A stretch of 64,000 nt of DNA from Sphingomonas sp. (GTDB taxonomy: Bacteria > Pseudomonadota > Alphaproteobacteria > Sphingomonadales > Sphingomonadaceae), in the NCBI RefSeq assembly GCF_965227385.1, contig NZ_OZ245750.1, positions 3,360,552 through 3,424,551 on the forward strand, in the 5' to 3' direction. Position 1 is the stretch's first letter. The number at the start of each line of letters is the position of its first letter. This document shows, in pieces, positions 47,313-64,000 of this stretch. A model generated the notes under the pieces. That model saw only the letters and a program-made list of their open reading frames with translations. It had not been told where the DNA came from and searched no databases. A program made the position numbers and the translations under genes.

Positions 47313-47388
47313 GGCCCCTTCGTCTAGCGGTCTAGGACGTCGCCCTCTCACGGCGAAAACACGGGTTCGAGTCCCGTAGGGGTCACCA
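47313..47388 (+). tRNA. tRNA-Glu, anticodon CTC
   Basis: Acceptor GGCCCCT/AGGGGTC-A-CCA, anticodon arm TCGCC-CTCTCAC-GGCGA, T-loop GGTTCGAGTCC; 76 nt. Confidence 0.97.
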
Positions 47389-51800: not shown

Positions 51801-52913
51801 TCAGAACACGACGACGCTGCGGATGCTTGTCCCCGCATGCATCAGGTCGAACCCCTTGTTGATGTCGTCCAGTCCCATGACATGGGTGATCATCGGGTCG
51901 ATCTCGATCTTGCCGGTCATGTACATGTCGACGATCTTGGGCACGTCGGTGCGGCCCTTTGCCCCGCCGAACGCGGTGCCGCGCCAGTTGCGGCCGGTGA
52001 CCAGCTGGAACGGGCGCGTGGCGATTTCCTTGCCCGCCTCGGCCACGCCGATGATGATGCTGGTGCCCCAGCCGCGATGGCATGCCTCCAGCGCGATGCG
52101 CATGACGTCCGTGTTGCCTGTCGCGTCGAACGTATAGTCGGCGCCGCCATCGGTCATCGCAACGATCCGCGCCACCACATCCTCGCGGCTCATGCCGCGC
52201 GAATTGAGGAAGTCGGTCATGCCGAACTTGCGCCCCCATTCCTCGCGATCGGGGTTGATGTCGACGCCGATGATCTGGTTCGCCCCGGCCAGCCGCGCGC
52301 CCTGAATGACGTTGAGGCCGATGCCGCCAAGGCCGAACACCACGACATTGTCGCCGACCTGCACCTTGGCCGTGTTGATGACCGCGCCGACCCCGGTGGT
52401 GACGCCGCAGCCGATATAGCAGCTGGTCTGGAACGGCGCGTCCTCGCGAATCTTGGCGACCGCGATCTCGGGCAGCACGGTGAAGTTCGAGAAGGTCGAG
52501 CAGCCCATGTAGTGATAGATCGGCTGGCCCTTGTAGGAAAAGCGCGTGGTGCCATCCGGCATCAGCCCCTTGCCCTGGGTTGCGCGGATCGCGGTACACA
52601 AATTGGTCTTGCCGCTGAGGCACGACTTACACTGGCGACATTCCGGCGTGTAGAGCGGGATGACATGGTCGCCCGGCGTCACGCTGGTCACGCCCGCGCC
52701 GACCTCGCGGACCACCCCCGCGCCTTCATGCCCCAGCACGCTCGGGAAGATCCCCTCGCTGTCGAACCCGTCCAGCGTATAGGCGTCGGTATGGCAGATG
52801 CCGGTCGCCATGATCTCGACCAGCACTTCCCCGGCTTTCGGCCCCTCCAGATCAAGCTCGACAATCTCGAGCGGCTTCCTGGCCTCGAATGCGACAGCGG
52901 CGCGGGTCTTCAT
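51801..52913 (-). CDS. frmA: S-(hydroxymethyl)glutathione dehydrogenase / class III alcohol dehydrogenase
   Basis: [49 protein letters not shown]. Confidence 0.96.
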
Positions 52914-53004
52914 GCTGGTCTCCTGATTTGCCAACCCCTCTAAATTCATTGCGAAGCAGGGAAAATCCGTCTTTTCTGCAAAACACTATCGCTCAGGAGA
53001 AACA

Positions 53005-53883
53005 ATGGCGGGTCCGTGGGATGGTATCGACGAGGTTGCGGCAGTTGCTGAAACGGGCAGCTTCGTCGGCGCAGCGCGACGCCTCGACGTCTCCGTATCG
53101 CACATCAGTCGCGCAGTGGCGCGATGTGAGGACAGGCTGCAGGTGCAGTTGTTCGCCCGTACGACCCGCTCGGTACGTGTCACCGACACGGGGCGGCTGT
53201 TGGTCGAGCAATTCCAGCGCCTGATCGCTGAGCGCGAGGAAGCGTTCGCGATGATCGAAGCCAATGGCGCGCCTCAGGGAGCGTTGCGCGTGACCTGCTC
53301 GATCGCCCTGGGCGAACGCTTCGTGGCGCCGGTCTTGCGATCATTCGCTCAGAAGTACCCCTCTTTGACCGTGGAGCTCGATCTATCGAATCGCGTCGTG
53401 GACTTGATCTCCGAAGGATATGACCTTGCCATTCGAACCGGTGCCCTGACCGACACGCGGCTATTGCGGCGGCAGATTTGCACCCGCCACGTGACGATAT
53501 GTGCTGCGCCCGCATATCTCAGCCGCCGCGGCATCCCCGGGTCGATCGCGGACCTGGACAGGCACGACTGTCTGGTGGGTTCTACGCGAATCTGGCAATT
53601 CGCTGTCGACGGAGCGCTGCAAAGCTACCGGCCTGTTCCGCGCTGGCAATGTAACAGCGGTATGGCAATCGCCGAGGCAGCTATCGCCGGAATGGGCGTT
53701 TGCCATCTGCCGACATTCTACCTGCGCGAGGCGCTCGCGTCGGGACAGTTGGTTCAGCTCCTCCAGCTGCACCACCCGCCCGCCGAGCCGGTATGGGCGG
53801 TCTATCCGCAGCGGCGGCACCTGCTCCCGAAGGTGCGCCGGGTGGTGGACCTGTTAGCGACAAATCTGGGTGACGGCCTCTAG
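53005..53883 (+). CDS. LysR-family regulator (CrgA-like)
   Basis: GSFVGAARRL, LFARTTRSVRVT, DLISEGYDLAIR; divergent from frmA. Confidence 0.93.
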   Translation: MAGPWDGIDEVAAVAETGSFVGAARRLDVSVSHISRAVARCEDRLQVQLFARTTRSVRVTDTGRLLVEQFQRLIAEREEAFAMIEANGAPQGALRVTCSIALGERFVAPVLRSFAQKYPSLTVELDLSNRVVDLISEGYDLAIRTGALTDTRLLRRQICTRHVTICAAPAYLSRRGIPGSIADLDRHDCLVGSTRIWQFAVDGALQSYRPVPRWQCNSGMAIAEAAIAGMGVCHLPTFYLREALASGQLVQLLQLHHPPAEPVWAVYPQRRHLLPKVRRVVDLLATNLGDGL

Positions 53884-54020: not shown

Positions 54021-56261
54021 TTGAAACAGCTATTGATGTCATCCGTTGCAACAGCCGTATTGCTGAGCGGAGCTACCGCGCATGCCGCAGACCCGGCCCC
54101 TGCCGCGCCGCAGAGCGAAACAACCCCGGCCAAGAAGGACCCCGAAGCCGACCGAGCGGGTATCGAGGAGGTCATCGTCACGGCCCAACGCACGGAGACC
54201 AGCCTCCAGCGCACACCCGTATCGGTCCAGGCCTACACCGCAGAAGAACTGACCCGACGTGGGGTCAGCGATATCGCGTCGCTGGTTCAGAACGATAGCA
54301 GCGTCAATCTCAACCTCTCGACCGGCCAGCCGATCATTGCCGTTCGCGGTGTGTCGAGCCAGAACGCGACCGAGGTGGGCGACCCCGCCGTGTCGGTGGC
54401 CACCGACGGCATCTTTACCAATCGGCCCTACGGCATCTTCGCCAGCATATATGACGTGGCGCGCGTTGAAATCCTTCGCGGCCCCCAGGGTACGCTGTTT
54501 GGTCGCAATGCCACCGGCGGCACGATCAACGTCATCACTGCGCGCCCGACGGATGGCAACGAGGCAATGGTGACAGGCGAAGTTGGAAGCTACTCGCTCG
54601 TCGGCGCTGAAGGTTACGTTAATTTTGGCGTCGCCAAGGGCGTGAACGGCCGCATTTCGTTCAACCTGCGCAACCGCAATGGTTACCGGGATCTGACACC
54701 GAACAAGACACGCGGCGATGACGAGGATCTGAAGTCGATCCGCGCCCAGTTCGCCTTCGAATCCGGCGCATTGGAGGGGTGGATTCTCGGCCAATACAGC
54801 CAGCTTGGCGGTGGCGGAGCCGTGCGTGAGACCCTGCCCTTCATCTTCCGGAACGGCGTGAGCGGCGAGCCGGTGCACGAGCTACATCCCGACATCAGCG
54901 ATGGCCGCACCTTTCCGGCGTACGTACCGTATGTTCGTGACATGCGGCACTGGGAATTGCGCGGCGGCCTGACGTACACCTTCGCAGACGACATCTCGAT
55001 CAGCTATCTCGGCGGCTACGACCGGATCAATTATTTACGGCAACAGGCGATCAGCCCCTTCTTCGCCGGGTTCGGGAATGGACCGCTGCCGGTGCCGCGG
55101 GTCTATGACAGCCGCGAGAAGCCCGAGACGATCAACCAGGAAATCCGCGTTGCATCCGCGCCGAACGCGCGGTTCTCCTGGCAGGCAGGCGCCTATTACT
55201 TCCGCGAACGCAACAGCGTTTTTGTCGATATCGTGTTCAATCCGAATTCCAACGCGCGACGCCTGGGAACGCAGTTCCAGTATCCGTCGATCACCTCCAC
55301 ATCAAAGGCGCTGTTTGCTCAGGCCAGCTATGGCCTGACCGAGGAACTGCGACTGACCGTAGGCGGGCGCTATACGTGGGACAACAAGGAACGGGTCGGC
55401 ACCTTCATCCTGCATCCCGCGCAAACTGGTGGTGCAAACATCATCCGGATTGACCAACCGGCGACCTCCAAGTCGAACAAGCCGACGTGGACGGTTGGCC
55501 TCGACTATCAGGCAACGCCCGACAACCTGCTCTATGCAAAGGTCAGCACCGGCTACAAGGTCGGAGGTTTCAACAACGCCGTCAGCGTCTATGGCCCCGA
55601 AACCGTCACATCCTACGAGATCGGCTCGAAGAACAGCTTTCTCGACCGGCACCTGCAACTGAATGTCAGCGCGTTCCGCATGGACTACTCGGACCAGCAG
55701 GTCACGCAGTTCGTCGCTGGTGTCCAGAGCTCCGGCTCGCTTACCGTGAATGCCGGCCGCTCGCGCATCTGGGGGGCAGAGCTCAACCTGATCGCGCAGG
55801 ACGATGCATTCGGGCGCGTGGCAATCTCCGGCAACTTCACCGATGCAAAGTATAAAGAGTTCATCGCATCCGCGGGGTGGAACTCGTCGATCAACCTCAA
55901 TCTCGCCGGCAACACACTGCCACTCGCGCCGCGCTGGTCATTCACGGGCGAATACATGCTGCCGATCGAACTCGCGAGCGGCGCAACCGTGACGCCGCGG
56001 ATTTCCGGCAAATACCAGAGCGATCAATGGTTTGCTGCCACGAACTACAACTCGCAGAAGAACCCAGCTTATGGCCTCGTCGATCTGGGCCTGGACTACG
56101 AAACAAGCGACGGCAATGTGCTGGTTCAGCTGTGGGTCAAAAATCTGTTCGACAAGACCGTATTCAGCGACGCAACTGAATTCTATCTCTACAATAACTA
56201 TCAGTATTCCTATCAGCCGCCACGGACTTACGGCATCCGGGCACGGGTGAAGATCCGCTAG
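54021..56261 (+). CDS. TonB-dependent outer-membrane receptor
   Basis: Signal peptide, EEVIVTAQR, VEILRGPQGTLFGRNATGG, C-terminal PRTYGIRARV; TTG start. Confidence 0.95.
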   Translation: MKQLLMSSVATAVLLSGATAHAADPAPAAPQSETTPAKKDPEADRAGIEEVIVTAQRTETSLQRTPVSVQAYTAEELTRRGVSDIASLVQNDSSVNLNLSTGQPIIAVRGVSSQNATEVGDPAVSVATDGIFTNRPYGIFASIYDVARVEILRGPQGTLFGRNATGGTINVITARPTDGNEAMVTGEVGSYSLVGAEGYVNFGVAKGVNGRISFNLRNRNGYRDLTPNKTRGDDEDLKSIRAQFAFESGALEGWILGQYSQLGGGGAVRETLPFIFRNGVSGEPVHELHPDISDGRTFPAYVPYVRDMRHWELRGGLTYTFADDISISYLGGYDRINYLRQQAISPFFAGFGNGPLPVPRVYDSREKPETINQEIRVASAPNARFSWQAGAYYFRERNSVFVDIVFNPNSNARRLGTQFQYPSITSTSKALFAQASYGLTEELRLTVGGRYTWDNKERVGTFILHPAQTGGANIIRIDQPATSKSNKPTWTVGLDYQATPDNLLYAKVSTGYKVGGFNNAVSVYGPETVTSYEIGSKNSFLDRHLQLNVSAFRMDYSDQQVTQFVAGVQSSGSLTVNAGRSRIWGAELNLIAQDDAFGRVAISGNFTDAKYKEFIASAGWNSSINLNLAGNTLPLAPRWSFTGEYMLPIELASGATVTPRISGKYQSDQWFAATNYNSQKNPAYGLVDLGLDYETSDGNVLVQLWVKNLFDKTVFSDATEFYLYNNYQYSYQPPRTYGIRARVKIR

Positions 56262-56287
56262 GTTCCGGTCATCCCAAAGCGCCATCG

Positions 56288-56319
56288 GGGCGGGACATTT
56301 GATGTCCCGCCCTTTTTTT
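56288..56319 (+). terminator. Intrinsic terminator after the TonB receptor
   Basis: gggcgggacat-ttg-atgtcccgccc followed by T7. Confidence 0.85.
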
Positions 56320-56417
56320 GGCGGGAAATCCGGCAAGTCGGAGCGCGCAAATCCGCATGTCGCTCAGGGGGCAGACGGGTATGCTCCAAACTGGATAATA
56401 GCGTTCGGGAGTGGATT

Positions 56418-57764
56418 TTGATCATGAGCGAGGCCGCCGTAGCGCCACACCGACACAAGCTCTCGCATCTCGAGGTCCTCAGCTATGGAGGAGGCTCAGT
56501 CGCTTCCAGCCTTTCCTGGAACATGGTCGCCGGCTTTCTGATCGTCTATTACACCGATACGATCCTTCTGCCGGTCGCTGCGGTCGGGACGCTCGTCTTT
56601 CTGACGCGCCTGATCGACGCATTGTTCGACCCAGTCGTCGGCATGCTCGTAGATCGAACACGGTCGCGGTGGGGCAAGGCGCGGCCATATCTGCTGTTCA
56701 TGCCGATCCCGTTCGCGATATTGTGCGTGCTGACATTCGCCGTCCCGGACGGCACGACCAACGAGAAGCTGGTCTACGCCTATATCACCTTCGGCCTGCT
56801 GGGTCTGGTCTACTCGTTGCTCTATGTGCCCTACGGCGCGCTTCAACCGCTGCTGACCTCTGACAGACCGCAATTGCTGACCATCAGCAGCGTGCGTGCG
56901 ATGGGCACGTCGGTCGCATCGATTTTCGTGTACGCGCTTGTCGTCCCGACTATCGCCTTCTTCGGCGGCGGGCGAGCCGGCTACACTTGGGCGGCGGCGG
57001 TGTTCGCACTCTGCACGACCGCACTTTATTTCGTGACCTTTGCAAATTGTCGCGAACGGACTGCCGGTGATGCCGAGTCCGATCGCTCGCCATTCAAAAA
57101 GGCGTTTCCGCGCGCGCTGCGCAATCGCGTTTGGGTCGTCGCGATGCTGTTCGAGATTCTGATCTTCATTCGTCTCGGTATCATGACCGCCGCCATGGCC
57201 TTTTATGCACGCATCGTGCTGGGTTCGGCGGCATCGATCTCGATCCTGCTCCCGACTCTCTCGGTCGGCATCCTTCTGGGTGGCTTCATCGCGGCGCCGT
57301 ATCTGCGCCGCTTCGGCAAACGACGGGGGGTCAGCTGGTTTCTGCTGTTCACCATCTTCATCTTCGCGCTGGTTCCGGTGATCGGCCACACCGTGCTCGG
57401 CTTCAGCTTGATCCTGTTCTTCGGCGCAATCGGCGCTGGCGTTCAGGCAACGATGGTCTTTGCGATGGTTTCGGAATCAGTGGAGGCCCAGTTGCGGCTG
57501 TTCGGGTTTCGGGATGCGGGGCTGCTGACGTCGTTCGCAGCGTTCAACTCCAAGGTCGGCTTCGCGCTGGGAAGCGCGGGCGTTGCCTGGGCGCTGGCGC
57601 TTGCCGATTACAGCCCGAACCTGCCCGCCGCTGCGGTCGCGCCGACATTGATCTGGATCTTCTGCCTGTCCCCGATCGTGCTGTCCCTGCTCCAGCTTGT
57701 GGTGATCCGCTACTATCCGGAGGACATGGCAGCGCTTGCGGCGGACCGGGCAGCCGCGGCGTGA
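56418..57764 (+). CDS. Glycoside-pentoside-hexuronide (GPH/MelB-like) cation symporter
   Basis: DALFDPVVGMLVDRTRSRWGKARPY, ~12 TM helices, KVGFALG. Confidence 0.92.
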   Translation: MIMSEAAVAPHRHKLSHLEVLSYGGGSVASSLSWNMVAGFLIVYYTDTILLPVAAVGTLVFLTRLIDALFDPVVGMLVDRTRSRWGKARPYLLFMPIPFAILCVLTFAVPDGTTNEKLVYAYITFGLLGLVYSLLYVPYGALQPLLTSDRPQLLTISSVRAMGTSVASIFVYALVVPTIAFFGGGRAGYTWAAAVFALCTTALYFVTFANCRERTAGDAESDRSPFKKAFPRALRNRVWVVAMLFEILIFIRLGIMTAAMAFYARIVLGSAASISILLPTLSVGILLGGFIAAPYLRRFGKRRGVSWFLLFTIFIFALVPVIGHTVLGFSLILFFGAIGAGVQATMVFAMVSESVEAQLRLFGFRDAGLLTSFAAFNSKVGFALGSAGVAWALALADYSPNLPAAAVAPTLIWIFCLSPIVLSLLQLVVIRYYPEDMAALAADRAAAA

Positions 57765-58588
57765 TCGCGCGGCGCACGGTCCTCGGCGCGGGCGGCCTTG
57801 TCGTCGCCCAATCGCTGGTCGGACGGGTTCGCGCATCGGCCCCCGGGCAACTCCTGTTCGACGGGCGCAGCCTTGCCGGCTGGCGCTATCACGAAGGCGG
57901 ACGCCCGCGTGAAGTACCTCGGCATATCGTGACGCGCGCGGGCGAACTGCATGTCCTCGCCGATCCGCTGCCCGACGGCGCCGAAGTGCCCTTCGGCTAT
58001 CTGGCGACCGACCGCAGCTTCGCCGATTTTCACCTGCGGCTCGACTATCGCTGGGGTCCCGCGCGCTATGCACCAAGAGCGCTCGCAAAGCGCAACAGCG
58101 GCGTGATGTACCATTTGTCGCCCAGTCCCGACCCGGGCGTCGAGCACGCGATCGAGTTTCAGATCCAGGAAAGCAATGTCGGGGACATCATCGCAATCAA
58201 CGCCCGCGCTCTGGAGGCACCGCAACCCGGCGGAACGCCTGCCTGGCCGGAATGGCCCAGCTGGGTCCCCCGCACCTATGCCGAGCCATCCATCGCCGGG
58301 GGCATCTCACGCCAATGGTTTCGTGGCGCCGGTGATTTCGAACTGCGGGATCGGTGGAACCGGCTCGACGTCATCGCTTATCGCGACCAGGCCGCACATC
58401 TCGTCAACGGTCGTATCGTCGCGGCGGTCTACGGGCTGCGTGCAACAAGCGCGACCGGCATGGCCACAGCCGATCCGCTGATGTCCGGGCGGATCGCCCT
58501 GCAGATCGAAGCCGCGCAGATCGCATTCCGCAATATCCGCATCCGCCCGATCAGTCACCCGATGGACCTGAGTTCGGCCCGCGACTGA
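57761..58588 (+). CDS. DUF1080 (3-keto-disaccharide hydrolase family) protein with Tat-like signal
   Basis: GTG start, IARRTVLG signal, LFDGRSLAGW, FADFHLRLDYRW, NSGV, EFQIQE, WNRLDV, GRIALQ..FRNIRI. Confidence 0.88.
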   Translation: MIARRTVLGAGGLVVAQSLVGRVRASAPGQLLFDGRSLAGWRYHEGGRPREVPRHIVTRAGELHVLADPLPDGAEVPFGYLATDRSFADFHLRLDYRWGPARYAPRALAKRNSGVMYHLSPSPDPGVEHAIEFQIQESNVGDIIAINARALEAPQPGGTPAWPEWPSWVPRTYAEPSIAGGISRQWFRGAGDFELRDRWNRLDVIAYRDQAAHLVNGRIVAAVYGLRATSATGMATADPLMSGRIALQIEAAQIAFRNIRIRPISHPMDLSSARD

Positions 58589-58699
58589 CGTCGGTTTGCC
58601 CAGGGTCGCGCCCGCACTTTGCCCGCTGCGCAGTCCCGACCGAGGCCGATTGACGATATTTGGACGTTCGTACAGCACCTGAGTTCAATGGAGGGCAAG

Positions 58700-59839
58700 G
58701 TGGCAGATACGCACGCGGGCGGGCGCCCACGGACACTGGACGAGGCAAAGGAGTGGATGCGCCAAAAGGCGGTCGCTCGCCAGCATCCGATGAACAACCT
58801 GAGTGTAGAGGACACCGAAAGCGTCCTCGCAACGCTTCCCGGACTCGACGGCGCATCCTGGGCGCCGGCTTGGACGACGGCGGGCGAAGCTGCGTTCGAA
58901 CAGGCCATGCAATCGCAGCGGGAGGGGGACCGGACCACGGCACGGGAACACTTCCTGCGCGCTCATGGCTTCTTCTTCATGGGGCGTTTCCCATGCCCCA
59001 ACCACCCGTTCAAGCTCGAATCCGCCCAGCGCGAACGCGATGCCTATCTCGCCGCAGGGGCGCTGTTCGATCGTCCCGTGGAGCGCGTCACCGTGCCCTT
59101 CCAAGGACGCGAGGGCGAGGGCGATGCGGTGGTCTTCCTGTTCCGCCGCCCTGCCACGACCGGACCTGTCCCAGTGGTGGTGATGTGGGGCGGCGTCGAC
59201 GCCTGGAAGGAACAGATGACCGCCGCGAGCGACCTGTTGCTCGCCCGCGGCGTGGCCACGATCGCCATGGACGGACCCGGGACTGGCGAGTCACCGGTCA
59301 AGGGTGTCCCGGATGCCGACCGCCAGTTCCTGCCGGTGTTCGACTGGGTCGAGCGCCGGGATGATCTGATCGGTCGTCCGGCATGTCTGGGGCGCTCGTT
59401 CGGCGGCTATTGGGCAACGCGCCTCGCCCACGTCCATGCCAGCCGCATCAGTGCAGCAGTCAACTGGGGTGGCGGCGCCCATTACATGTTTCAGGCCGAC
59501 TGGATCGCGGCATCCCGCTATCCCGACAGCTATCTCATGGAACTGGTAGAGACGCGGATGCGAATGCTCGGCGCCAGTACCGATGCCGAGTATCTCGGCT
59601 TCTTCGAACGCCTGTCGCTACTCGATCAAGGTCTGCTCGACCAGCCTTGCGCACCGATGCTGCTGGTCAACGGGCGGGAGGACAAGCAATGCCCGGTCGC
59701 GGACATCGACCTGCTCGTTTCGCACGGATCGCCCAAATCAGTGCGCATGTTCCCGGGCGGCCATATGGGCATTACCCCTGAGACGCTGCCGCTGATCGTC
59801 GAATGGCTCGCCGCGCGCGCGCATGAGGGTGCACGGTGA
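58700..59839 (+). CDS. Alpha/beta hydrolase, FrsA / 2,6-dihydroxypseudooxynicotine-hydrolase-like
   Basis: GGVDAWKE, DGPGTGES, GRSFGG nucleophile, NGREDKQ Asp, GGH His. Start GTG 58700 or ATG 58688. Confidence 0.85.
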   Translation: MADTHAGGRPRTLDEAKEWMRQKAVARQHPMNNLSVEDTESVLATLPGLDGASWAPAWTTAGEAAFEQAMQSQREGDRTTAREHFLRAHGFFFMGRFPCPNHPFKLESAQRERDAYLAAGALFDRPVERVTVPFQGREGEGDAVVFLFRRPATTGPVPVVVMWGGVDAWKEQMTAASDLLLARGVATIAMDGPGTGESPVKGVPDADRQFLPVFDWVERRDDLIGRPACLGRSFGGYWATRLAHVHASRISAAVNWGGGAHYMFQADWIAASRYPDSYLMELVETRMRMLGASTDAEYLGFFERLSLLDQGLLDQPCAPMLLVNGREDKQCPVADIDLLVSHGSPKSVRMFPGGHMGITPETLPLIVEWLAARAHEGAR

Positions 59840-60144
59840 CCGCGTCGAACTGGGTCGGGACGCTGCCTTCCCAAGAGGCCTATGCGATCAACCGCATCCT
59901 GTACGATGTGCAACACGATCGCGCCGAGGAGGCACGCTACTTCGCCGATCCAAAGGCCTATCTGGCGGACCTGCCCGGGCTTTCGGATCGCGCGGTTGCG
60001 GCGTTGAGCACGACCGATGTGGGGCAGCTCTATCTGCTCGGCGCCAACCCCTATCTGCTGCGTGCCTATTGCCTGCAACTTCGCATGCCCGATCCCGAAT
60101 ATCTCGCCGCGCTGCGCGCCGTGGGAGGAACGAACCATGGCTGA
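59836..60144 (+). CDS. LigA-like small subunit of an extradiol ring-cleavage dioxygenase
   Basis: YAINRILY, YFADPKAYL, LYLLGANPYLL; coupled to the LigB-like gene. Confidence 0.75.
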   Translation: MTASNWVGTLPSQEAYAINRILYDVQHDRAEEARYFADPKAYLADLPGLSDRAVAALSTTDVGQLYLLGANPYLLRAYCLQLRMPDPEYLAALRAVGGTNHG

Positions 60145-60961
60145 TATCGTCGGCATCTTCGCGGTCAGCCACACCCCGGTAATGACCAATCTGCCCGACG
60201 CGCCGGCGCCAGCCGAGCGCGACGAGATCTTTGCCCATTTCCGCCAGATCGGCCGGACCATCGCCGACCAGCGACCCGATGCGATCATCGTGATCTCCGA
60301 CGATCACCTGCACAATTTCTTCCTCGATAACATGCCGGCCTTCTGCATCGGCGCGGGGGAGAGCCACGACAGCCCTATGGAGGCATGGCTGAGGGTCGAG
60401 CGTCGCCAATTGCGCGGCCACCGCGACCTTGCCGCGCATCTCATCGATCGCAGCTTCGCGAGCGGGTTCGACCCGTCCTTCTCACTCTCGCTGACACTCG
60501 ATCATGGCATGATCACACCGCTCGAGCTTGCCGGTATCGCCACGCTCGCCCCGATTGTTCCGGTCATCGTCAATACGGTGCAACCGCCGATGCCGCGCAT
60601 GCCGCGCTGCATCGCGTTCGGCCGGGCGCTCGGCGCGGCTCTTCGCGACTATCAGGAGTGCCAGCGGATCGTCGTGCTGGCGACGGGCGGGCTCAGCCAC
60701 GATGTCGGCACGCCGCGCATGGGCATGGTGAACGAGGCGTTCGACCGTGGCTTCCTCGATCGCCTCGAAGCCGGCGACGAGTCCGCGCTCGTCGCGTTTG
60801 CGGAAGCGGAAGTCGGGCGGGCCGGAAACGGCGCGGAGGAAGTGCGGAACTGGCTTGTCGCCCACGGCATCGCCGACGGCGCGCGCTTCCAGCCAATTCA
60901 CTATCGCGCCGTGCCGAGCTGGTACACCGGGATCGCCCTTGGCCGCTGGGTGCAGGCGTGA
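60137..60961 (+). CDS. LigB/MhpB-type (class III) extradiol dioxygenase catalytic subunit
   Basis: SHTP, DDHLHNFF, LDHG, TGGLSH, EEVRNW: expected Fe ligands and catalytic His are present. Confidence 0.9.
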   Translation: MADIVGIFAVSHTPVMTNLPDAPAPAERDEIFAHFRQIGRTIADQRPDAIIVISDDHLHNFFLDNMPAFCIGAGESHDSPMEAWLRVERRQLRGHRDLAAHLIDRSFASGFDPSFSLSLTLDHGMITPLELAGIATLAPIVPVIVNTVQPPMPRMPRCIAFGRALGAALRDYQECQRIVVLATGGLSHDVGTPRMGMVNEAFDRGFLDRLEAGDESALVAFAEAEVGRAGNGAEEVRNWLVAHGIADGARFQPIHYRAVPSWYTGIALGRWVQA

Positions 60962-61734
60962 CGGCGCTGAACCATCGCACCTGGGGCAACGACGCCGCGC
61001 CCCCGGTGGTCCTACTGCACGCGATCGGGACTTCGGGCGCGATGTGGACCCCGCAGCTGCTCAGCTGGGGCAGTCGCTTTCGGATCGTTGCGCTGGATCT
61101 GCCCGGCCATGGCAGCAGCCCCCCGATCCCGGACGGTGCCACGTTCGGCGACTATGCGGCATTGGTCGCCGCCACACTGGAACAGCTTGGAATTCGATCA
61201 GCGGCGGTCGTCGGCCTGTCGTTCGGGTCAATGATTGCGATGCGCCTCGCTCATGATCGCCCGGATCTGGTTTCGAGCCTGGTGCTGGCGAACGGCGTCG
61301 CGATCGCGCCATCGCCAGTACGGCGCGCATGGGCTGAGCGCATCGCCGCCGTCCAGACCGGCGGCATATCGGCCATTGTCGCGGGCACGCTCGATCGGTG
61401 GTTCACGCCAGCCTTTGCCGCCGTCGCACCGATGACGATTGAGGCGGTCGGCAACCTTGTGCGCGCGACCCGGCCGGACGGCTTCTGCGCCGCCGCGCAG
61501 GCGATCGCCACCCTCGATCAAACGGCGTTGCTCGGAGCAATCGCCTGCCCAACGCTTGTCGTCGCGGGCAGCAAGGATGCGGCCGCGCCGCCCGAACAGG
61601 TCGCGGACATCGCCCGGGCCATCCCGGGCGCCCGACTGATCGAACTGGATGCGCCGCATATGTCCAATATCGAATGCGCAGATGCGTTCAGCGAAGGGGT
61701 TGGCGCATTCCTGAGCGAGGTGACGGGACAATGA
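60958..61734 (+). CDS. PcaD-like alpha/beta hydrolase (3-oxoadipate enol-lactonase family)
   Basis: HAIGT, DLPGHG, GLSFG, DRWFT, GSKDAAAPP, APHMSNIE. Confidence 0.85.
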   Translation: MTALNHRTWGNDAAPPVVLLHAIGTSGAMWTPQLLSWGSRFRIVALDLPGHGSSPPIPDGATFGDYAALVAATLEQLGIRSAAVVGLSFGSMIAMRLAHDRPDLVSSLVLANGVAIAPSPVRRAWAERIAAVQTGGISAIVAGTLDRWFTPAFAAVAPMTIEAVGNLVRATRPDGFCAAAQAIATLDQTALLGAIACPTLVVAGSKDAAAPPEQVADIARAIPGARLIELDAPHMSNIECADAFSEGVGAFLSEVTGQ

Positions 61735-62864
61735 GCGTCACCGACTTGCGGATCCTGATCGTGGGCGGTGGCATCGCCGGGATGAGCAGCGCCATTCGCC
61801 TGCGCGCAATCGGTGCTTCCGTCGATCTGATCGACCTTGACCCGCTCTGGCGCGTTTACGGCGCAGGTATCACGGTCACGAGTCCGACGTTGCGCGCGTT
61901 CGACCAGTTGGGGATTTTGCGCGATTTTCTGGAGGTGGGCTATGCTGGCGACGGCATCCGCATCTGCGCGCCCGACGGCAGCTGGGTCGAGGATCTGACC
62001 GACCCGTTCGATTCGCGGACCGGCATTCCCGGCAGTGGCGGGATCATGCGGCCCGAATTGCACCGCATTCTTTCGGAACGGGTGCGGGCCAGCGGTACAA
62101 CCATACGACTAGGGCTGACGGTCGAACATCTTGATCAGACCGCGGGCGACGGCGTCACCGTCCGCTTCAGCGATGGATCCACGAGCTGGTATGACCTCGT
62201 TATCGGCGCTGATGGCCTGTATTCAACGGTGCGCAAGCTGACGTTCACGCATGCGCCAAGCCCCGCCTATACCGGTCAGATGGTCTGGAGACTCTTTGCT
62301 CCGCGACCAGCCGGGGTCGACCGCCGTCATTATTATCTTGGCGGGCCCATGAAGGTGGGCGTCTGTCCCGTGTCCGACACGCACCTCTATCTGTTCCTGC
62401 TCGAAAAGACCCCGCAGCATCCGATCATACCCGAAGAGGAATTGCAGGGCAGGCTGGCCGCGCTGATGGCGGGCTATGGCGGGGTGATCGGCGACCTGCG
62501 CGATGGATTGAACCGCGACTCGCAGATCGTCGTGCGACCGCTAGAAGCATTCGAAATGCCGCCGCCCTGGCATTCCGGCCGCGTCGTGATTATCGGTGAC
62601 GCAGTGCATCCGACGACCCCGCAACTCGCCTCGGGCGCGGGCATGGCGGTGGAGGATGCGCTGGTACTGTCGGAGGAGCTTGTAAACGCGAATGGCGACA
62701 TCGACGCGATGCTGCCGCGCTTCGTCGCGCGACGGTGGGCGCGGTGCCGCATAGTCGTTGCCAATTCGCTCGAGATCGGACGACGGGAACAGGCAGGGCG
62801 CCCCCCATCCGAACAAACCGACCTGGTGACCCAGTCGCTCGAGAAGCTGGCAGAACCGATCTGA
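61731..62864 (+). CDS. Group A FAD-dependent aromatic monooxygenase
   Basis: VGGGIAG, GADGLYS (DG), IIGDAVH (GD), GAGMAVEDA. Confidence 0.92.
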   Translation: MSVTDLRILIVGGGIAGMSSAIRLRAIGASVDLIDLDPLWRVYGAGITVTSPTLRAFDQLGILRDFLEVGYAGDGIRICAPDGSWVEDLTDPFDSRTGIPGSGGIMRPELHRILSERVRASGTTIRLGLTVEHLDQTAGDGVTVRFSDGSTSWYDLVIGADGLYSTVRKLTFTHAPSPAYTGQMVWRLFAPRPAGVDRRHYYLGGPMKVGVCPVSDTHLYLFLLEKTPQHPIIPEEELQGRLAALMAGYGGVIGDLRDGLNRDSQIVVRPLEAFEMPPPWHSGRVVIIGDAVHPTTPQLASGAGMAVEDALVLSEELVNANGDIDAMLPRFVARRWARCRIVVANSLEIGRREQAGRPPSEQTDLVTQSLEKLAEPI

Positions 62865-63382
62865 TGCTGCACCCCCTTCCCGACTCTGAGTGGCCCGCAG
62901 AAATTGCCGACATGCGTGAGGGCTTTGCCGGGAAGCTGAACGTCTATCGCGTGATGGCGCACCATCCGGCGCTGCTGCGGGCCTGGAGCGATTTCCGCAA
63001 TCATGTCGTGACGCAGTCAGCACTGACGCCGATCCAGTCGGAACTCGTCATCCTCCGCACAGGCTATCGCCATCGTTCCCGTTACGAATGGGCGCATCAC
63101 GTGGCACGCGGGTTGGCAGTCGGACTGTCAGACCAGCGGATCAACGCCACCGCGCGCGGTGCGGAAGGGAACGAGGACGGCCTACTCATCGCCGCAGTCG
63201 ATGCGTTGCTCGATCACGGAAAGCTTTCACCGGCCCTGCTTGACCGGATCACCCGTAAACTCGGTACGCCGGCTGTGCTGGATATTATTTCCACCGTCGG
63301 CATGTACACGACTCTCGCCTTCCTGATCGAGACGTTTCAGGTGCCGATCGATCGCGGCATCGATCCCGTTCCGCTGCCCTAA
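62864..63382 (+). CDS. Carboxymuconolactone decarboxylase / AhpD-like family protein
   Basis: NVYRVMAHHP, ELVILRT, YEWAHH; TGATG coupling. Confidence 0.85.
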   Translation: MLHPLPDSEWPAEIADMREGFAGKLNVYRVMAHHPALLRAWSDFRNHVVTQSALTPIQSELVILRTGYRHRSRYEWAHHVARGLAVGLSDQRINATARGAEGNEDGLLIAAVDALLDHGKLSPALLDRITRKLGTPAVLDIISTVGMYTTLAFLIETFQVPIDRGIDPVPLP

Positions 63383-63524
63383 AGCTGGCTTTTCCCGCAG
63401 CGCGCCAGCAGTTGCCGGATTGCGCATCCCACACCGGGAGGTTGATCGAATCTCTCTAGCCGCAACCGTTGCACTGACGTAAGTTTGGACGATCGTGCAA
63501 AAATGGCACGGCTGGAGAGGTTTC

Positions 63525-64000
63525 ATGATCGAGCAAGCGGTCCCGGATACCGGCATCACCGAGCCGGCAGCATTTACGCAGAAATTGTCGAGCCTGTTTC
63601 ATGTCGGCTTCATCGTCGAGCCGACCGGTCCGGACGCATTTCAGGCCGTGATCAAGCCGGTCGAAATTGGCCGGCTGAACATCGCACAATTGAGCTTCTC
63701 TCCGCACAAGACGCGCCGATCGATCACCCCTGTGGCGCACGCGCGCGAGTATTTCCTGCTCAACCACCTGATTGAAGGAAGCGCCTGGATTAGCCAGGAC
63801 GGGCGCGAGGCAGAGGTCGCGGCGGGGGATCTCTACCTCATCAACACGATGCGGGACTTCAACATTGAAACCGGGTCGATGCGCGCGAATTCCGTTTACA
63901 TCGACGCTGCCTATTTCCGCTCCGTCTATCCCGAGATCGACTGCTGTCTGGGTGTTCGCCTGGACGGCAATAGCAGCACGACGCGAATCGTAGTGGATCT
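63525..64000 (+). CDS. AraC-family regulator (FeaR/NitR-type ligand-binding N-domain), runs off the window edge
   Basis: Hand translation from ATG 63525 (GGAGAGG RBS): MIEQAVP...IGRLNIAQLSFSPH...QDGREAEVAAGDLYLIN...; open to base 64000, so absent from the ORF track. Confidence 0.75.
   Translation, partial: MIEQAVPDTGITEPAAFTQKLSSLFHVGFIVEPTGPDAFQAVIKPVEIGRLNIAQLSFSPHKTRRSITPVAHAREYFLLNHLIEGSAWISQDGREAEVAAGDLYLINTMRDFNIETGSMRANSVYIDAAYFRSVYPEIDCCLGVRLDGNSSTTRIVVD

Follow-up and report, generated by a model that had tools for sequence, protein, structure and literature searches.

We analyzed a 64-kb window of a Sphingomonas sp. genome (a 3.97-Mb single contig, NZ_OZ245750.1, of ~63% G+C) and focused on the gene cluster at its right end, from position 54,021 onward. 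The cluster joins predicted glycoside uptake genes to a predicted aromatic ring-cleavage operon, and we read it, together with the DNA that follows, as part of a candidate island for the catabolism of plant C-glycosides. An earlier note on this DNA had described ten co-oriented genes here, six of them (58700-63382) coupled by overlapping start and stop codons. Both descriptions hold: the open reading frames and the Pfam and NCBIfam profiles place all ten genes on the plus strand and in the families named there, and start and stop codons overlap at every junction of the six. Families, catalytic motifs, gene coupling, conservation, and co-locations are reported below as established by the tools.

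The gene cluster at the end of the window

The features of the cluster are the following.

54021-56261, plus strand: TonB-dependent receptor (TBDR), 746 amino acids, with Pfam Plug and TonB_dep_Rec_b-barrel
56287-56313, plus strand: terminator-like hairpin, 12-bp stem with eight GC pairs, followed by TTTTTTT
56418-57764, plus strand: GPH (MFS_2) symporter, glycoside:cation (TIGR00792, 277.6 bits vs. a cutoff of 231)
57761-58588, plus strand: DUF1080 (PF06439) protein with a GTG start (Pfam, 98 bits)
58700-59839, plus strand: AYG, an alpha/beta hydrolase of Ayg1/Wdyg1/DHPONH type, 379 amino acids (Pfam FrsA-like, PF06500, 58 bits)
59836-60144, plus strand: LigA-like small subunit, 102 amino acids (Pfam LigA, PF07746, 23.5 bits, below the cutoff of 25.3)
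60137-60961, plus strand: LigB, catalytic subunit of a class III extradiol dioxygenase (PF02900, 150 bits)
60958-61734, plus strand: ABH, a PcaD-like alpha/beta hydrolase, 258 amino acids (TIGR02427, 222 bits vs. a cutoff of 255.85)
61731-62864, plus strand: FMO, a group A FAD-dependent monooxygenase, 377 amino acids (NF005313, 438 bits vs. a cutoff of 372)
62864-63382, plus strand: CMD-family protein, 172 amino acids (Pfam CMD, 42 bits)
63495-64487, plus strand: AraC regulator, 330 amino acids, running past the window end at 64000 (AraC_binding_2 and HTH_18 on the full gene)

From AYG to CMD, successive genes overlap by 4, 8, 4, 4, and 1 nucleotides, and the GPH stop overlaps the DUF1080 start by 4 nucleotides. 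The gaps are 156 nucleotides before GPH and 111 nucleotides before AYG (58588-58700). The GTG at 58700 that starts AYG is preceded by the Shine-Dalgarno sequence GGAGGG, and the resulting length of 379 amino acids matches that of a 92%-identical relative (P0002). Because the terminator-like hairpin lies directly after the receptor gene and separates it from the GPH-DUF1080 unit, the ten genes are not one transcript; the cluster appears to comprise at least two, and probably three, transcription units.

The solved structures closest to AYG are those of the fungal enzymes Wdyg1p (8qd7, E 1e-51, ~40% identity) and Afyg1p (8qd1, E 3e-45), with residues 32-375 covered by both alignments, and then that of DHPONH (2jbw, E 7e-15). 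The triad Ser233 (GRSFGG), Asp328 (NGREDKQ), and His355 (GGHMG) aligns with those of Wdyg1p and Afyg1p and is invariant in 120 orthologs, as are Arg232, Phe234, and Arg286. The last of these takes the position of the acyl-pocket residues Trp309 (Afyg1p) and Leu308 (Wdyg1p). Wdyg1p strips the acetyl group from 2-acetyl-1,3,6,8-tetrahydroxynaphthalene and Afyg1p the acetoacetyl group from YWA1, both by retro-Claisen chemistry via an acyl-serine (PMC11165489). We regard AYG as a candidate retro-Claisen aryl-ketone C-C hydrolase. That idea had been raised before for the first hydrolase of the operon, and it is strengthened by the best solved relatives being Wdyg1p and Afyg1p and not FrsA; an identity as FrsA esterase was rejected, the FrsA structures matching at E 3e-7 against 1e-51 for Wdyg1p.

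The predicted ring-cleaving enzyme would have two subunits. The LigA-like gene stands in the same position as genes that Pfam calls LigA in related loci, and RefSeq names its counterparts there "subunit of meta cleavage enzyme." LigB matches the gallate dioxygenase DesB (E 4e-31), LigB (E 1e-27), and MhpB (E 6e-24) in the Protein Data Bank, and its His12, DH (59), DHG (124), GGLSH (192), and E-V (239) align with the iron ligands and catalytic His residues of DesB. The catalytic motifs, previously said to be intact, are so for the residues checked, namely the AYG triad and the LigB iron ligands and catalytic His. LigB stays below every NCBIfam equivalog and subfamily cutoff, the best being NF009901 with 181 bits vs. 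290. Membership of the gallate, protocatechuate (4,5-), 3-O-methylgallate, or MhpB subfamily was rejected on these cutoffs and on LigB being equally distant from DesB, LigB, and MhpB.

The remaining enzymes of the operon are assigned more broadly. ABH has a GLSFGS elbow, is present in most, not all, copies of the operon found elsewhere, and is a candidate enol-lactone or ester hydrolase. FMO, whose nearest solved relatives are distant (HpxO, NicC, and the 3-hydroxybenzoate and salicylate hydroxylases, E 1e-26 to 1e-19), is a candidate (poly)phenol hydroxylase. The CMD protein has no cysteines and no NCBIfam match; homologs at 54-59% identity occur in locus L011 and in a Logan contig (L089/L091), and a different CMD subfamily accompanies the operon in nine other loci. 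An assignment to the protocatechuate/beta-ketoadipate pathway through PcaD and PcaC was rejected: ABH scores 222 bits vs. 255.85, CMD matches no NCBIfam model, and the operon lacks PcaB, PcaG, and PcaH.

Conservation and surroundings of the two gene sets

One genome per species was scanned, and 75 loci encode AYG relatives. Genes in these loci were called crudely, by GC3; this gave antisense artifacts and was used for neighborhood tallies only, and the conclusions on these loci rest on a tblastn matrix and the contigs' called genes. AYG, LigA, LigB, and FMO co-occur in ~55-60 of the 75 loci at identities of 55-73, 41-72, 53-64, and 48-65%, respectively, and the five-gene core, in which ABH is usually included, keeps the same order in them. 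The hosts are Sphingomonadaceae, Herbaspirillum, Hydrogenophaga, Polaromonas, Duganella, Delftia, Ralstonia pickettii, Pseudomonas, Pusillimonas, Povalibacter, and Steroidobacteraceae, and copies are also found on Rhizobium and Novosphingobium megaplasmids. The TBDR, GPH, and DUF1080 genes lie outside the conserved set. Judged from its relatives, the core of the aromatic operon is a separately mobile, independent cassette. The RefSeq names of its genes in other genomes are generic, no function is assigned to any of the copies, and our full-text search found no published description of it, which is weak evidence, most subscription journals lying outside that search.

The commonest neighbor of the cassette is a CoxL-type molybdenum (Mo) hydroxylase, found at at least 11 loci and also on a Rhizobium rosettiformans plasmid and in Sphingomonas faeni, sometimes with Amidohydro_1. 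Other neighbors are NitT/TauT ABC or TctC transporters, BKACE or 3-oxoacid CoA transferase, the second CMD subfamily, and, in Herbaspirillum, a VanA/VanB-like pair. In this genome, no ortholog of the cassette-associated Mo hydroxylase was found, the best match being 30% identical. In several sphingomonads (Sphingomonas faeni, L006/L017, 13035-13667; L008; L010), the cassette is directly followed by an Asp/Glu-racemase-family protein of 210-229 amino acids. That protein resembles arylmalonate decarboxylase and maleate isomerase, and it occupies the slot of the CMD-like gene described here.

Reduced forms of the cassette were also seen. An operon in Pseudacidovorax intermedius, detailed below, is a truncated form whose substrate must need no local ring cleavage. 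A congener (L084, G002:C3:327144-328190) has an FAD monooxygenase (48% identity) followed by an Ayg1-like hydrolase (37%) without LigAB, and the same pairing without LigAB appears in Nocardia and Streptomyces loci (L063-L081).

The glycoside-related genes of the window belong to a different conserved set. Starting from the alpha subunit of a C-glycoside deglycosidase (CGD) encoded downstream of the window, we inspected five other contigs. Common to the five is the order TBDR, MFS_2/GPH, CGD beta, CGD alpha, Gluconate_2-dh3, GMC, GFO, and TIM barrel; the carriers are Novosphingobium sp. KA1 (L093, CP021248.1, 408558-429565), Telluria mixta (L094), and three metagenome contigs, and DUF1080 is often near such loci. 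The receptor of the window is 33-45% identical to the TBDRs that head the loci L092, L094, L089, and L090. Its GPH symporter is 43-63% identical to the MFS_2 protein encoded directly before CGD beta/alpha in L026, L089, L090, L092, L093, and L094, and its DUF1080 protein is 43-47% identical to those of L092 and L093. By these comparisons, the three genes are orthologs of genes in canonical proteobacterial C-glycoside loci. The AraC regulator shares 49% identity with its counterpart immediately before GPH-CGD in L090 and 35-39% with AraC proteins encoded next to the cassette elsewhere.

Some of the canonical loci are followed by aromatic genes of other kinds. In KA1 and L092, the locus continues with a LysR gene, an FAD monooxygenase of ~535 amino acids, and a glyoxalase-type dioxygenase of 382 amino acids; in KA1, an alpha/beta hydrolase comes next. 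After the CGD locus of L090 (14504-20772) come an aldehyde dehydrogenase, a TPP enzyme, an FAD monooxygenase, a maleylacetate-reductase-like Fe-ADH protein, and an intradiol dioxygenase, with a CoA transferase and a thiolase upstream of this hydroxyquinol-type module. The module looks like another route for the disposal of polyhydroxybenzene rings linked to CGD.

The next 28 kb past the window, examined as L002 and L003, contain the predicted deglycosidase itself. These features and two from the left side of the cluster are the following.

Directly after AraC, minus strand: operon of thiolase, Amidohydro_2, two enoyl-CoA hydratases, aryl-acid CoA ligase, and SDR
L002 16696-17178, plus strand: CGD beta (PF19906, 52 bits vs. 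a cutoff of 27.6)
L002 17175-18200, plus strand: CGD alpha, a xylose-isomerase-like TIM barrel (AP_endonuc_2), its start overlapping the CGD beta stop
L003 9303-13122 (window-equivalent ~81.3-85.1 kb): LysR-controlled MhpA-subfamily hydroxylase, two-domain VOC extradiol dioxygenase, and FAH-family hydrolase
L003 13276-19968 (~85.3-92.0 kb), minus strand: second set of GMC, Gluconate_2-dh3, TIM barrel, GFO/IDH/MocA, and TonB receptor
51801-52949, minus strand: class III alcohol dehydrogenase, with a divergent LysR gene at 53005-53883
47313-47388: tRNA-Glu(CTC), ~6.6 kb upstream of the cluster

The CGD pair lies 6.7 kb past the window end. CGD alpha matches the solved CGD of a soil bacterium (7dnm) at E 8e-62 and conserves the EIHAP and SSEWEGH stretches; the roles of the catalytic His and Glu residues are known from that work (PMC8563793). 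The pair is followed by a TetR gene, a second TIM-barrel protein, a GFO/IDH/MocA oxidoreductase, and a 615-amino-acid GMC flavoprotein. The latter resembles the large subunits of FAD-dependent glucose and fructose dehydrogenases (E 1e-34) and matches the CarA-type oxidase 7qf8 at only E 3e-9. Its partner, a Gluconate_2-dh3 small subunit, has the twin-arginine lipoprotein signal LSRRLLLG...LSGC, and a DHDPS-like protein, a VanA-type Rieske O-demethylase, and a LysR gene come after it. With the second, paralogous GMC set, the sugar-oxidizing candidates amount to two GMC and Gluconate_2-dh3 pairs and two GFO/IDH/MocA genes, and the island therefore appears to have two periplasmic glycoside dehydrogenase systems.

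For the aromatic side, the aryl-acid CoA ligase in the operon after AraC scores 522 bits against the DHB-AMP-ligase model, below the model cutoff, and the MhpA-subfamily hydroxylase scores 471 bits vs. a cutoff of 390. The hydroxylase, VOC dioxygenase, and FAH genes are a candidate hydroxyphenylpropionate-type branch for the half of the aglycone outside the A ring.

A close copy of AYG was found in 1 of 24 congeneric species and a close CGD alpha in none of the 24, and for that reason the island is considered accessory. To the left of position 54,021 lie the LysR gene, the class III alcohol dehydrogenase, and a ferredoxin reductase, and beyond them tRNA-Glu(CTC). The catabolic region from ~50.4 kb onward may be the cargo of an old integrative element. 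The alcohol dehydrogenase is, as we take it by eye, an S-(hydroxymethyl)glutathione dehydrogenase; it could detoxify formaldehyde released by the Rieske O-demethylase of the island.

In this genome, GPH-DUF1080 and CGD beta/alpha stand ~13 kb apart, with the aromatic operon, AraC, and the CoA operon between them, and the six-gene operon would have been inserted there as a module for the aglycone. This is one of four places where the cassette, once as a partial variant, lies within 10 kb of CGD genes, with different gene orders. The Logan contig ERR11040786_5088 encodes AYG (69% identity), CGD alpha (76%), GPH (63%), DHDPS-like (86%), and CMD-like (59%) proteins, with a Mo hydroxylase between the cassette and the GPH-CGD gene sets. 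In a Steroidobacteraceae metagenome-assembled genome (L026), the two sets are divided by strand, GMC, the small subunit, CGD alpha, CGD beta, and GPH lying on one and AraC, FMO, and AYG-LigA-LigB-ABH on the opposite one, at identities of 62% for AYG, 62% for CGD alpha, 55% for GPH, and 56% for GMC. In the actinomycete Amycolatopsis acidicola (L065), CGD beta and CGD alpha lie with an FMO (37%) and an AYG-like protein (48%), followed by a VOC dioxygenase; this is the partial variant, which lacks LigA, LigB, and ABH and has the VOC dioxygenase in place of LigAB. As both gene sets are rare, fewer than 0.05 chance co-locations would be expected in the 75 loci by a rough estimate, which leads us to regard the coupling as functional in these genomes.

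A proposed route and its alternatives

C-glycosides such as vitexin, orientin, puerarin, mangiferin, aspalathin, and carminic acid resist ordinary glycosidases, and their processing by bacteria is known from studies of gut Firmicutes and soil Actinobacteria. We propose that the window ends in the left part of an island, at least 38 kb long and gained by horizontal transfer, that serves the aerobic catabolism of such plant compounds, and we hold this, jointly with a mechanism in which AYG acts first on the aglycone, with about even confidence. O-glycosides may also be substrates. The genes had previously been placed in a pathway for a phenolic O- or C-glycoside; CGD beta/alpha, GMC with its Tat-exported small subunit, GFO, and the TIM barrel past the window largely support that proposal and direct it toward C-glycoside catabolism. 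The glycoside-uptake side of the proposal is borne out by the orthology of TBDR, GPH, and DUF1080 to genes of the canonical loci. We agree with the earlier note that the substrate itself cannot be read from sequence.

We infer the substrates, the order of the steps, and the co-regulation of the genes from sequence comparisons. The TonB receptor likely takes up the glycoside and would bring it into the periplasm, where the predicted Tat-exported, lipoprotein-anchored GMC dehydrogenase would oxidize the sugar at C3. The DUF1080 protein has a Tat-like N terminus (IARRTVLGAGG) and is a candidate periplasmic 3-keto-glycoside lyase or 3-keto-2-hydroxyglucal hydratase, which may handle 3-keto-O-glycosides or the keto-glycal; both 3-keto-alpha-glucoside lyase and 3-keto-2-hydroxyglucal hydratase activity have been demonstrated for the DUF1080 family (bioRxiv 10.1101/2024.03.25.586180). 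The GPH symporter would import the (3-keto) C-glycoside, and cytoplasmic CGD alpha/beta would break the C-C bond to the sugar.

The cassette would then take over the aglycone. AYG would cut the aryl-ketone C-C bond of an acyl-polyphenol by a retro-Claisen reaction, with a carboxylic acid and a ring of phloroglucinol or resorcinol type as products; dihydrochalcones, benzophenones, acetophenones, and ring-opened flavonoids or isoflavonoids are candidate aglycones. FMO would add a hydroxyl beside an existing one, producing a vicinal triol or tetrol, the LigAB-type dioxygenase would open the hydroxylated ring, and ABH and the CMD-like protein may turn the lactone or carboxylated product into a beta-keto acid for thiolase. 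The acid half could pass to the operon of CoA ligase, hydratase, dehydrogenase, and thiolase and to the MhpA-like hydroxylase, VOC dioxygenase, and FAH genes. Elsewhere, the Mo hydroxylase would feed the cassette and may add the second ring hydroxyl needed for retro-Claisen cleavage, by analogy with the nicotine pathway of Arthrobacter. The lack of its ortholog here fits this idea, as plant polyphenols already carry the second hydroxyl.

Several observations weigh against a glycoside-linked route in which AYG precedes ring opening, and our belief in it is evenly divided. About 55 of the ~60 cassette copies have no glycoside genes nearby, and the Mo hydroxylase, Amidohydro_1, NitT/TauT, and TctC neighbors point to N-heteroaromatic or carboxylate substrates. 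Arg286 suggests an anionic or oxygenated acyl group for AYG and not a hydrophobic phenylpropionyl. The 111-nucleotide gap before AYG and the independent mobility of the cassette leave co-regulation with GPH-DUF1080 a matter of interpretation. Finally, the LysR-controlled operon of Pseudacidovorax intermedius (L038, 8942-13554) consists of AYG, ABH, TctC, and CMD without LigAB or FMO, indicating that the two hydrolases and CMD can work together where no ring is opened and that the order of steps may differ.

The strongest alternative keeps the coupling to C-glycosides and reverses the order, with FMO and LigAB acting first and AYG then hydrolyzing the ring-fission product. The substrate of FMO would be the uncut aglycone or an aromatic acid, which it might also decarboxylate. 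The ring-fission product would be a vinylogous 1,3- or 1,5-diketone, and AYG would hydrolyze it as in classical meta-cleavage pathways, a role also suspected for the DHPONH-like hydrolase of the fde and ifc clusters; ABH and CMD would act on further fragments. Hydroxylation and cleavage do come first in the ifc and fde clusters, which join an FAD monooxygenase, an A-ring dioxygenase, and a DHPONH-like hydrolase (PMC11069340). Several of the nearest solved relatives of FMO are decarboxylating hydroxylases, namely NicC, salicylate hydroxylase, and the 1-hydroxylases of 4-hydroxybenzoate and vanillate; a carboxylated ring-fission product would suit Arg286, which is invariant and lies in the putative acyl pocket; and beta-keto-acid enzymes (BKACE, 3-oxoacid CoA transferase, and thiolase) often flank the cassette. 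However, all characterized close relatives of AYG (Wdyg1p, Afyg1p, and DHPONH) act on intact aromatic ketones, and AYG occurs with ABH and CMD but no dioxygenase or monooxygenase in Pseudacidovorax and with FMO but no LigAB in Nocardia and Streptomyces. Deletion of the DHPONH-like gene in Variovorax, moreover, left daidzein degradation unaffected (PMC11069340). We consider the reversed order unlikely, though a contender to be reckoned with.

Two further readings change the substrate. According to the first, N-heteroaromatic ketones or hydroxypyridines are the substrates of the cassette, in analogy to the kdh, DHPONH, and 2,6-dihydroxypyridine hydroxylase steps of Arthrobacter, and its place in the C-glycoside island is a mosaic accident with no functional coupling. 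The CoxL-type Mo hydroxylase, often with Amidohydro_1 and NitT/TauT transporters, would be explained, as would the family membership of DHPONH, which shares the GRS-x-GG motif with AYG, and the distant relation of FMO to NicC, HpxO, and 2,6-dihydroxypyridine hydroxylase; the island is indeed mosaic and adjoins tRNA-Glu. Against it, the cassette or its partial variant sits beside the rare CGD genes in four places and in different orders, and the Logan contig has Mo hydroxylase, cassette, and GPH-CGD all together. This genome, furthermore, lacks a cassette-associated Mo hydroxylase, and AYG matches Wdyg1p (E 1e-51) far better than it matches DHPONH (E 7e-15). We find this reading improbable.

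In the second, an O-heterocycle of coumarin, chromone, or isoflavone type is met as a 4-hydroxycoumarin-like enol lactone, made by the Mo hydroxylase where needed. ABH would open the lactone to an aroyl-acetate, and AYG would convert this to resorcinol or phloroglucinol and a (substituted) malonate, with Arg286 binding the carboxylate. The CMD-like or Asp_Glu_race protein would decarboxylate the malonate, and FMO and LigAB would degrade the phenol. The scheme covers all the accessories, namely the Mo hydroxylase, the near-PcaD score of ABH (222 bits), CMD/Asp_Glu_race, Arg286, and the AYG-ABH-TctC-CMD operon of Pseudacidovorax, and puerarin, an isoflavone C-glycoside, is a growth substrate of soil bacteria (PMC12724307). 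It is a purely deductive construction, however: no Mo hydroxylase acting on chromones or coumarins is known to us or was found in our literature search, ABH is absent from several otherwise complete cassettes, and the Mo hydroxylase ortholog is missing from this genome, all of which makes a lactone-first route rather implausible.

The reading with AYG acting first has a wider form, which we advance tentatively and whose parts are somewhat unlikely to hold all together. The island would take a plant C-glycoside aerobically all the way to central metabolism, the first complete route of its kind, and the cassette would be an unrecognized, widespread pathway with Ayg1-type release of the phloroglucinol- or resorcinol-type A ring of acyl-polyphenols, breakdown of that ring via a hydroxylated intermediate by a new LigAB subfamily, and a Mo-hydroxylase-fed equivalent elsewhere. 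If so, AYG would be the aerobic alpha/beta-fold counterpart of phloretin hydrolase. In the narrower form, too, a fold familiar from fungal melanin synthesis and nicotine catabolism would find a new catabolic use in AYG. The Mo-hydroxylase-preceded cassettes would do equivalent chemistry on heteroaromatic ketones, coumarins, and isoflavones that lack the second hydroxyl. A single substrate assignment would annotate the cassette in all ~55-60 loci, and the cassette could supply the missing genes for the aerobic bacterial breakdown of flavonoid-derived phloroglucinol- and resorcinol-type rings. On the latter subject, our full-text search, outside of which most subscription journals lie, found no paper on a bacterial aerobic gene cluster for phloroglucinol or tetrahydroxybenzene; a 1,2,3,5-tetrahydroxybenzene pathway has reportedly been described in fungi. 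The locus further suggests how Gram-negative soil and plant-associated bacteria may carry C-glycosides across two membranes, remove the sugar, and mineralize the aglycone.

Relation to known systems

The earlier view of the cluster as a single, undescribed, unified system did not stand. The sugar half is of a known kind, the aromatic operon is a separate cassette found mostly without glycoside genes, and functional analogs exist in the fde and ifc clusters and in Arthrobacter.

On the sugar side, oxidation at C3 followed by CGD-catalyzed C-C cleavage is established in Actinobacteria and gut bacteria (PMC8563793; PMC12724307). The island shares with CarA/CarBC of Microbacterium, PurA/PurBC of Paenarthrobacter, and DgpA/DgpBC of gut bacteria the adjacent genes for CGD beta (PF19906) and a TIM-barrel alpha subunit. 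CGD structures of this kind have been solved (7dnm and 7bvr), and CGD alpha of the island keeps the EIHAP His/Glu motif. As in those systems, a candidate C3-oxidizing flavoenzyme and a GFO/IDH/MocA oxidoreductase are encoded nearby. In place of the soluble CarA and PurA oxidases, however, the island has the predicted Tat-exported GMC dehydrogenase with its lipoprotein small subunit, and it adds the TonB receptor, the GPH symporter, and DUF1080. The published systems end at the aglycone, whereas the island also has candidate genes for aglycone ring cleavage (PMC8563793; PMC12724307). By sequence comparison, then, the sugar-removal half is of the known Car/Dgp/Pur type, and the Gram-negative outfit of receptor, Tat dehydrogenase, and symporter is new relative to those papers. 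Our full-text search, which most subscription journals lie outside of, found no paper on a proteobacterial C-glycoside locus, and this is weak evidence of novelty.

Two other systems are based on C3 oxidation. Agrobacterium reportedly has one for O-glycosides, with a glycoside 3-dehydrogenase and an O-glycoside beta-eliminase. The non-Koshland 3-keto-glycoside operons of Bacteroides and Alistipes have GFO-type or flavin C3 oxidation, a TIM-barrel lyase, and DUF1080, for which the island has candidate counterparts. They free sugars and aglycones from O-glycosides, however, and their lyases do not cleave 3-keto-C-glycosides (bioRxiv 10.1101/2024.03.25.586180); nor do they have a link to aromatic ring cleavage.

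For the hydrolase at the head of the cassette, the comparison is with Ayg1p, Wdyg1p, and DHPONH, with which AYG has in common the PF06500 fold family and the aligned Ser-Asp-His triad. Enzymes of the family take the acyl group off a poly-hydroxylated (hetero)aromatic ring by retro-Claisen cleavage (PMC11165489). Ayg1p and Wdyg1p serve fungal melanin biosynthesis and DHPONH nicotine catabolism, whereas AYG heads a catabolic operon in Proteobacteria. Its pocket also differs, with Phe234 after the nucleophile and with Arg286 where Wdyg1p has Leu and Afyg1p has Trp.

Among aromatic pathways, the fde genes of Herbaspirillum and the ifc genes of Variovorax follow the same logic, with an FAD monooxygenase, a dioxygenase, and a DHPONH-like hydrolase acting on flavonoid aglycones (PMC11069340). 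Their dioxygenase (FdeC/IfcB) is of VOC/glyoxalase type and that of the cassette is LigAB, a distinction drawn by description and not by sequence. They also use another monooxygenase subfamily (FdeE/IfcA) and essential cupins (IfcD) and have no PcaD-like or CMD partner, whereas the cassette has no cupin. The VOC dioxygenase of the island is paired with the MhpA-subfamily hydroxylase and FAH and not with partners of fde/ifc type.

In Arthrobacter nicotinovorans, a Mo hydroxylase (kdh) forms a 2,6-dihydroxy aryl ketone, DHPONH frees the ring, and an FAD monooxygenase (dhph) gives a triol. This three-enzyme logic of kdh, dhponh, and dhph matches many of the Mo-hydroxylase-linked contexts of the cassette, but the enzymes are only distant relatives (DHPONH, E 7e-15; 2,6-dihydroxypyridine hydroxylase, E 1e-12). 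We know of no ring-cleaving LigAB in the nicotine pyridine pathway of Arthrobacter.

The dioxygenases LigAB, DesB, and GalA and the 3-O-methylgallate enzymes MgaAB-MgaC of Pseudomonas sp. NGC7 offer the succession predicted for the cassette, a two-subunit class III dioxygenase followed by an alpha/beta hydrolase for the ring-fission product (PMC12314914), and a VanA-type O-demethylase lies near the cassette in some loci. The operon lacks the lower-pathway genes GalD, GalB, and GalC, however, and its LigB is only moderately related to DesB (E 4e-31). An assignment to the syringate pathway of NGC7 (MgaAB/MgaC) was rejected, by description: the mga system has no Ayg1-like hydrolase or FAD monooxygenase and needs GalD, GalB, and GalC (PMC12314914).

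The cassette thus belongs to none of the fde/ifc, Arthrobacter, and Mga systems, having another dioxygenase class or subfamily and other partners and scoring below the curated cutoffs, where Fde, Ifc, and Mga were compared by description only. Its predicted chemistry would make it a hydroxylase, extradiol dioxygenase, and hydrolase pathway that is headed by an Ayg1-type C-C hydrolase and, in this island, joined to C-glycoside deglycosylation.

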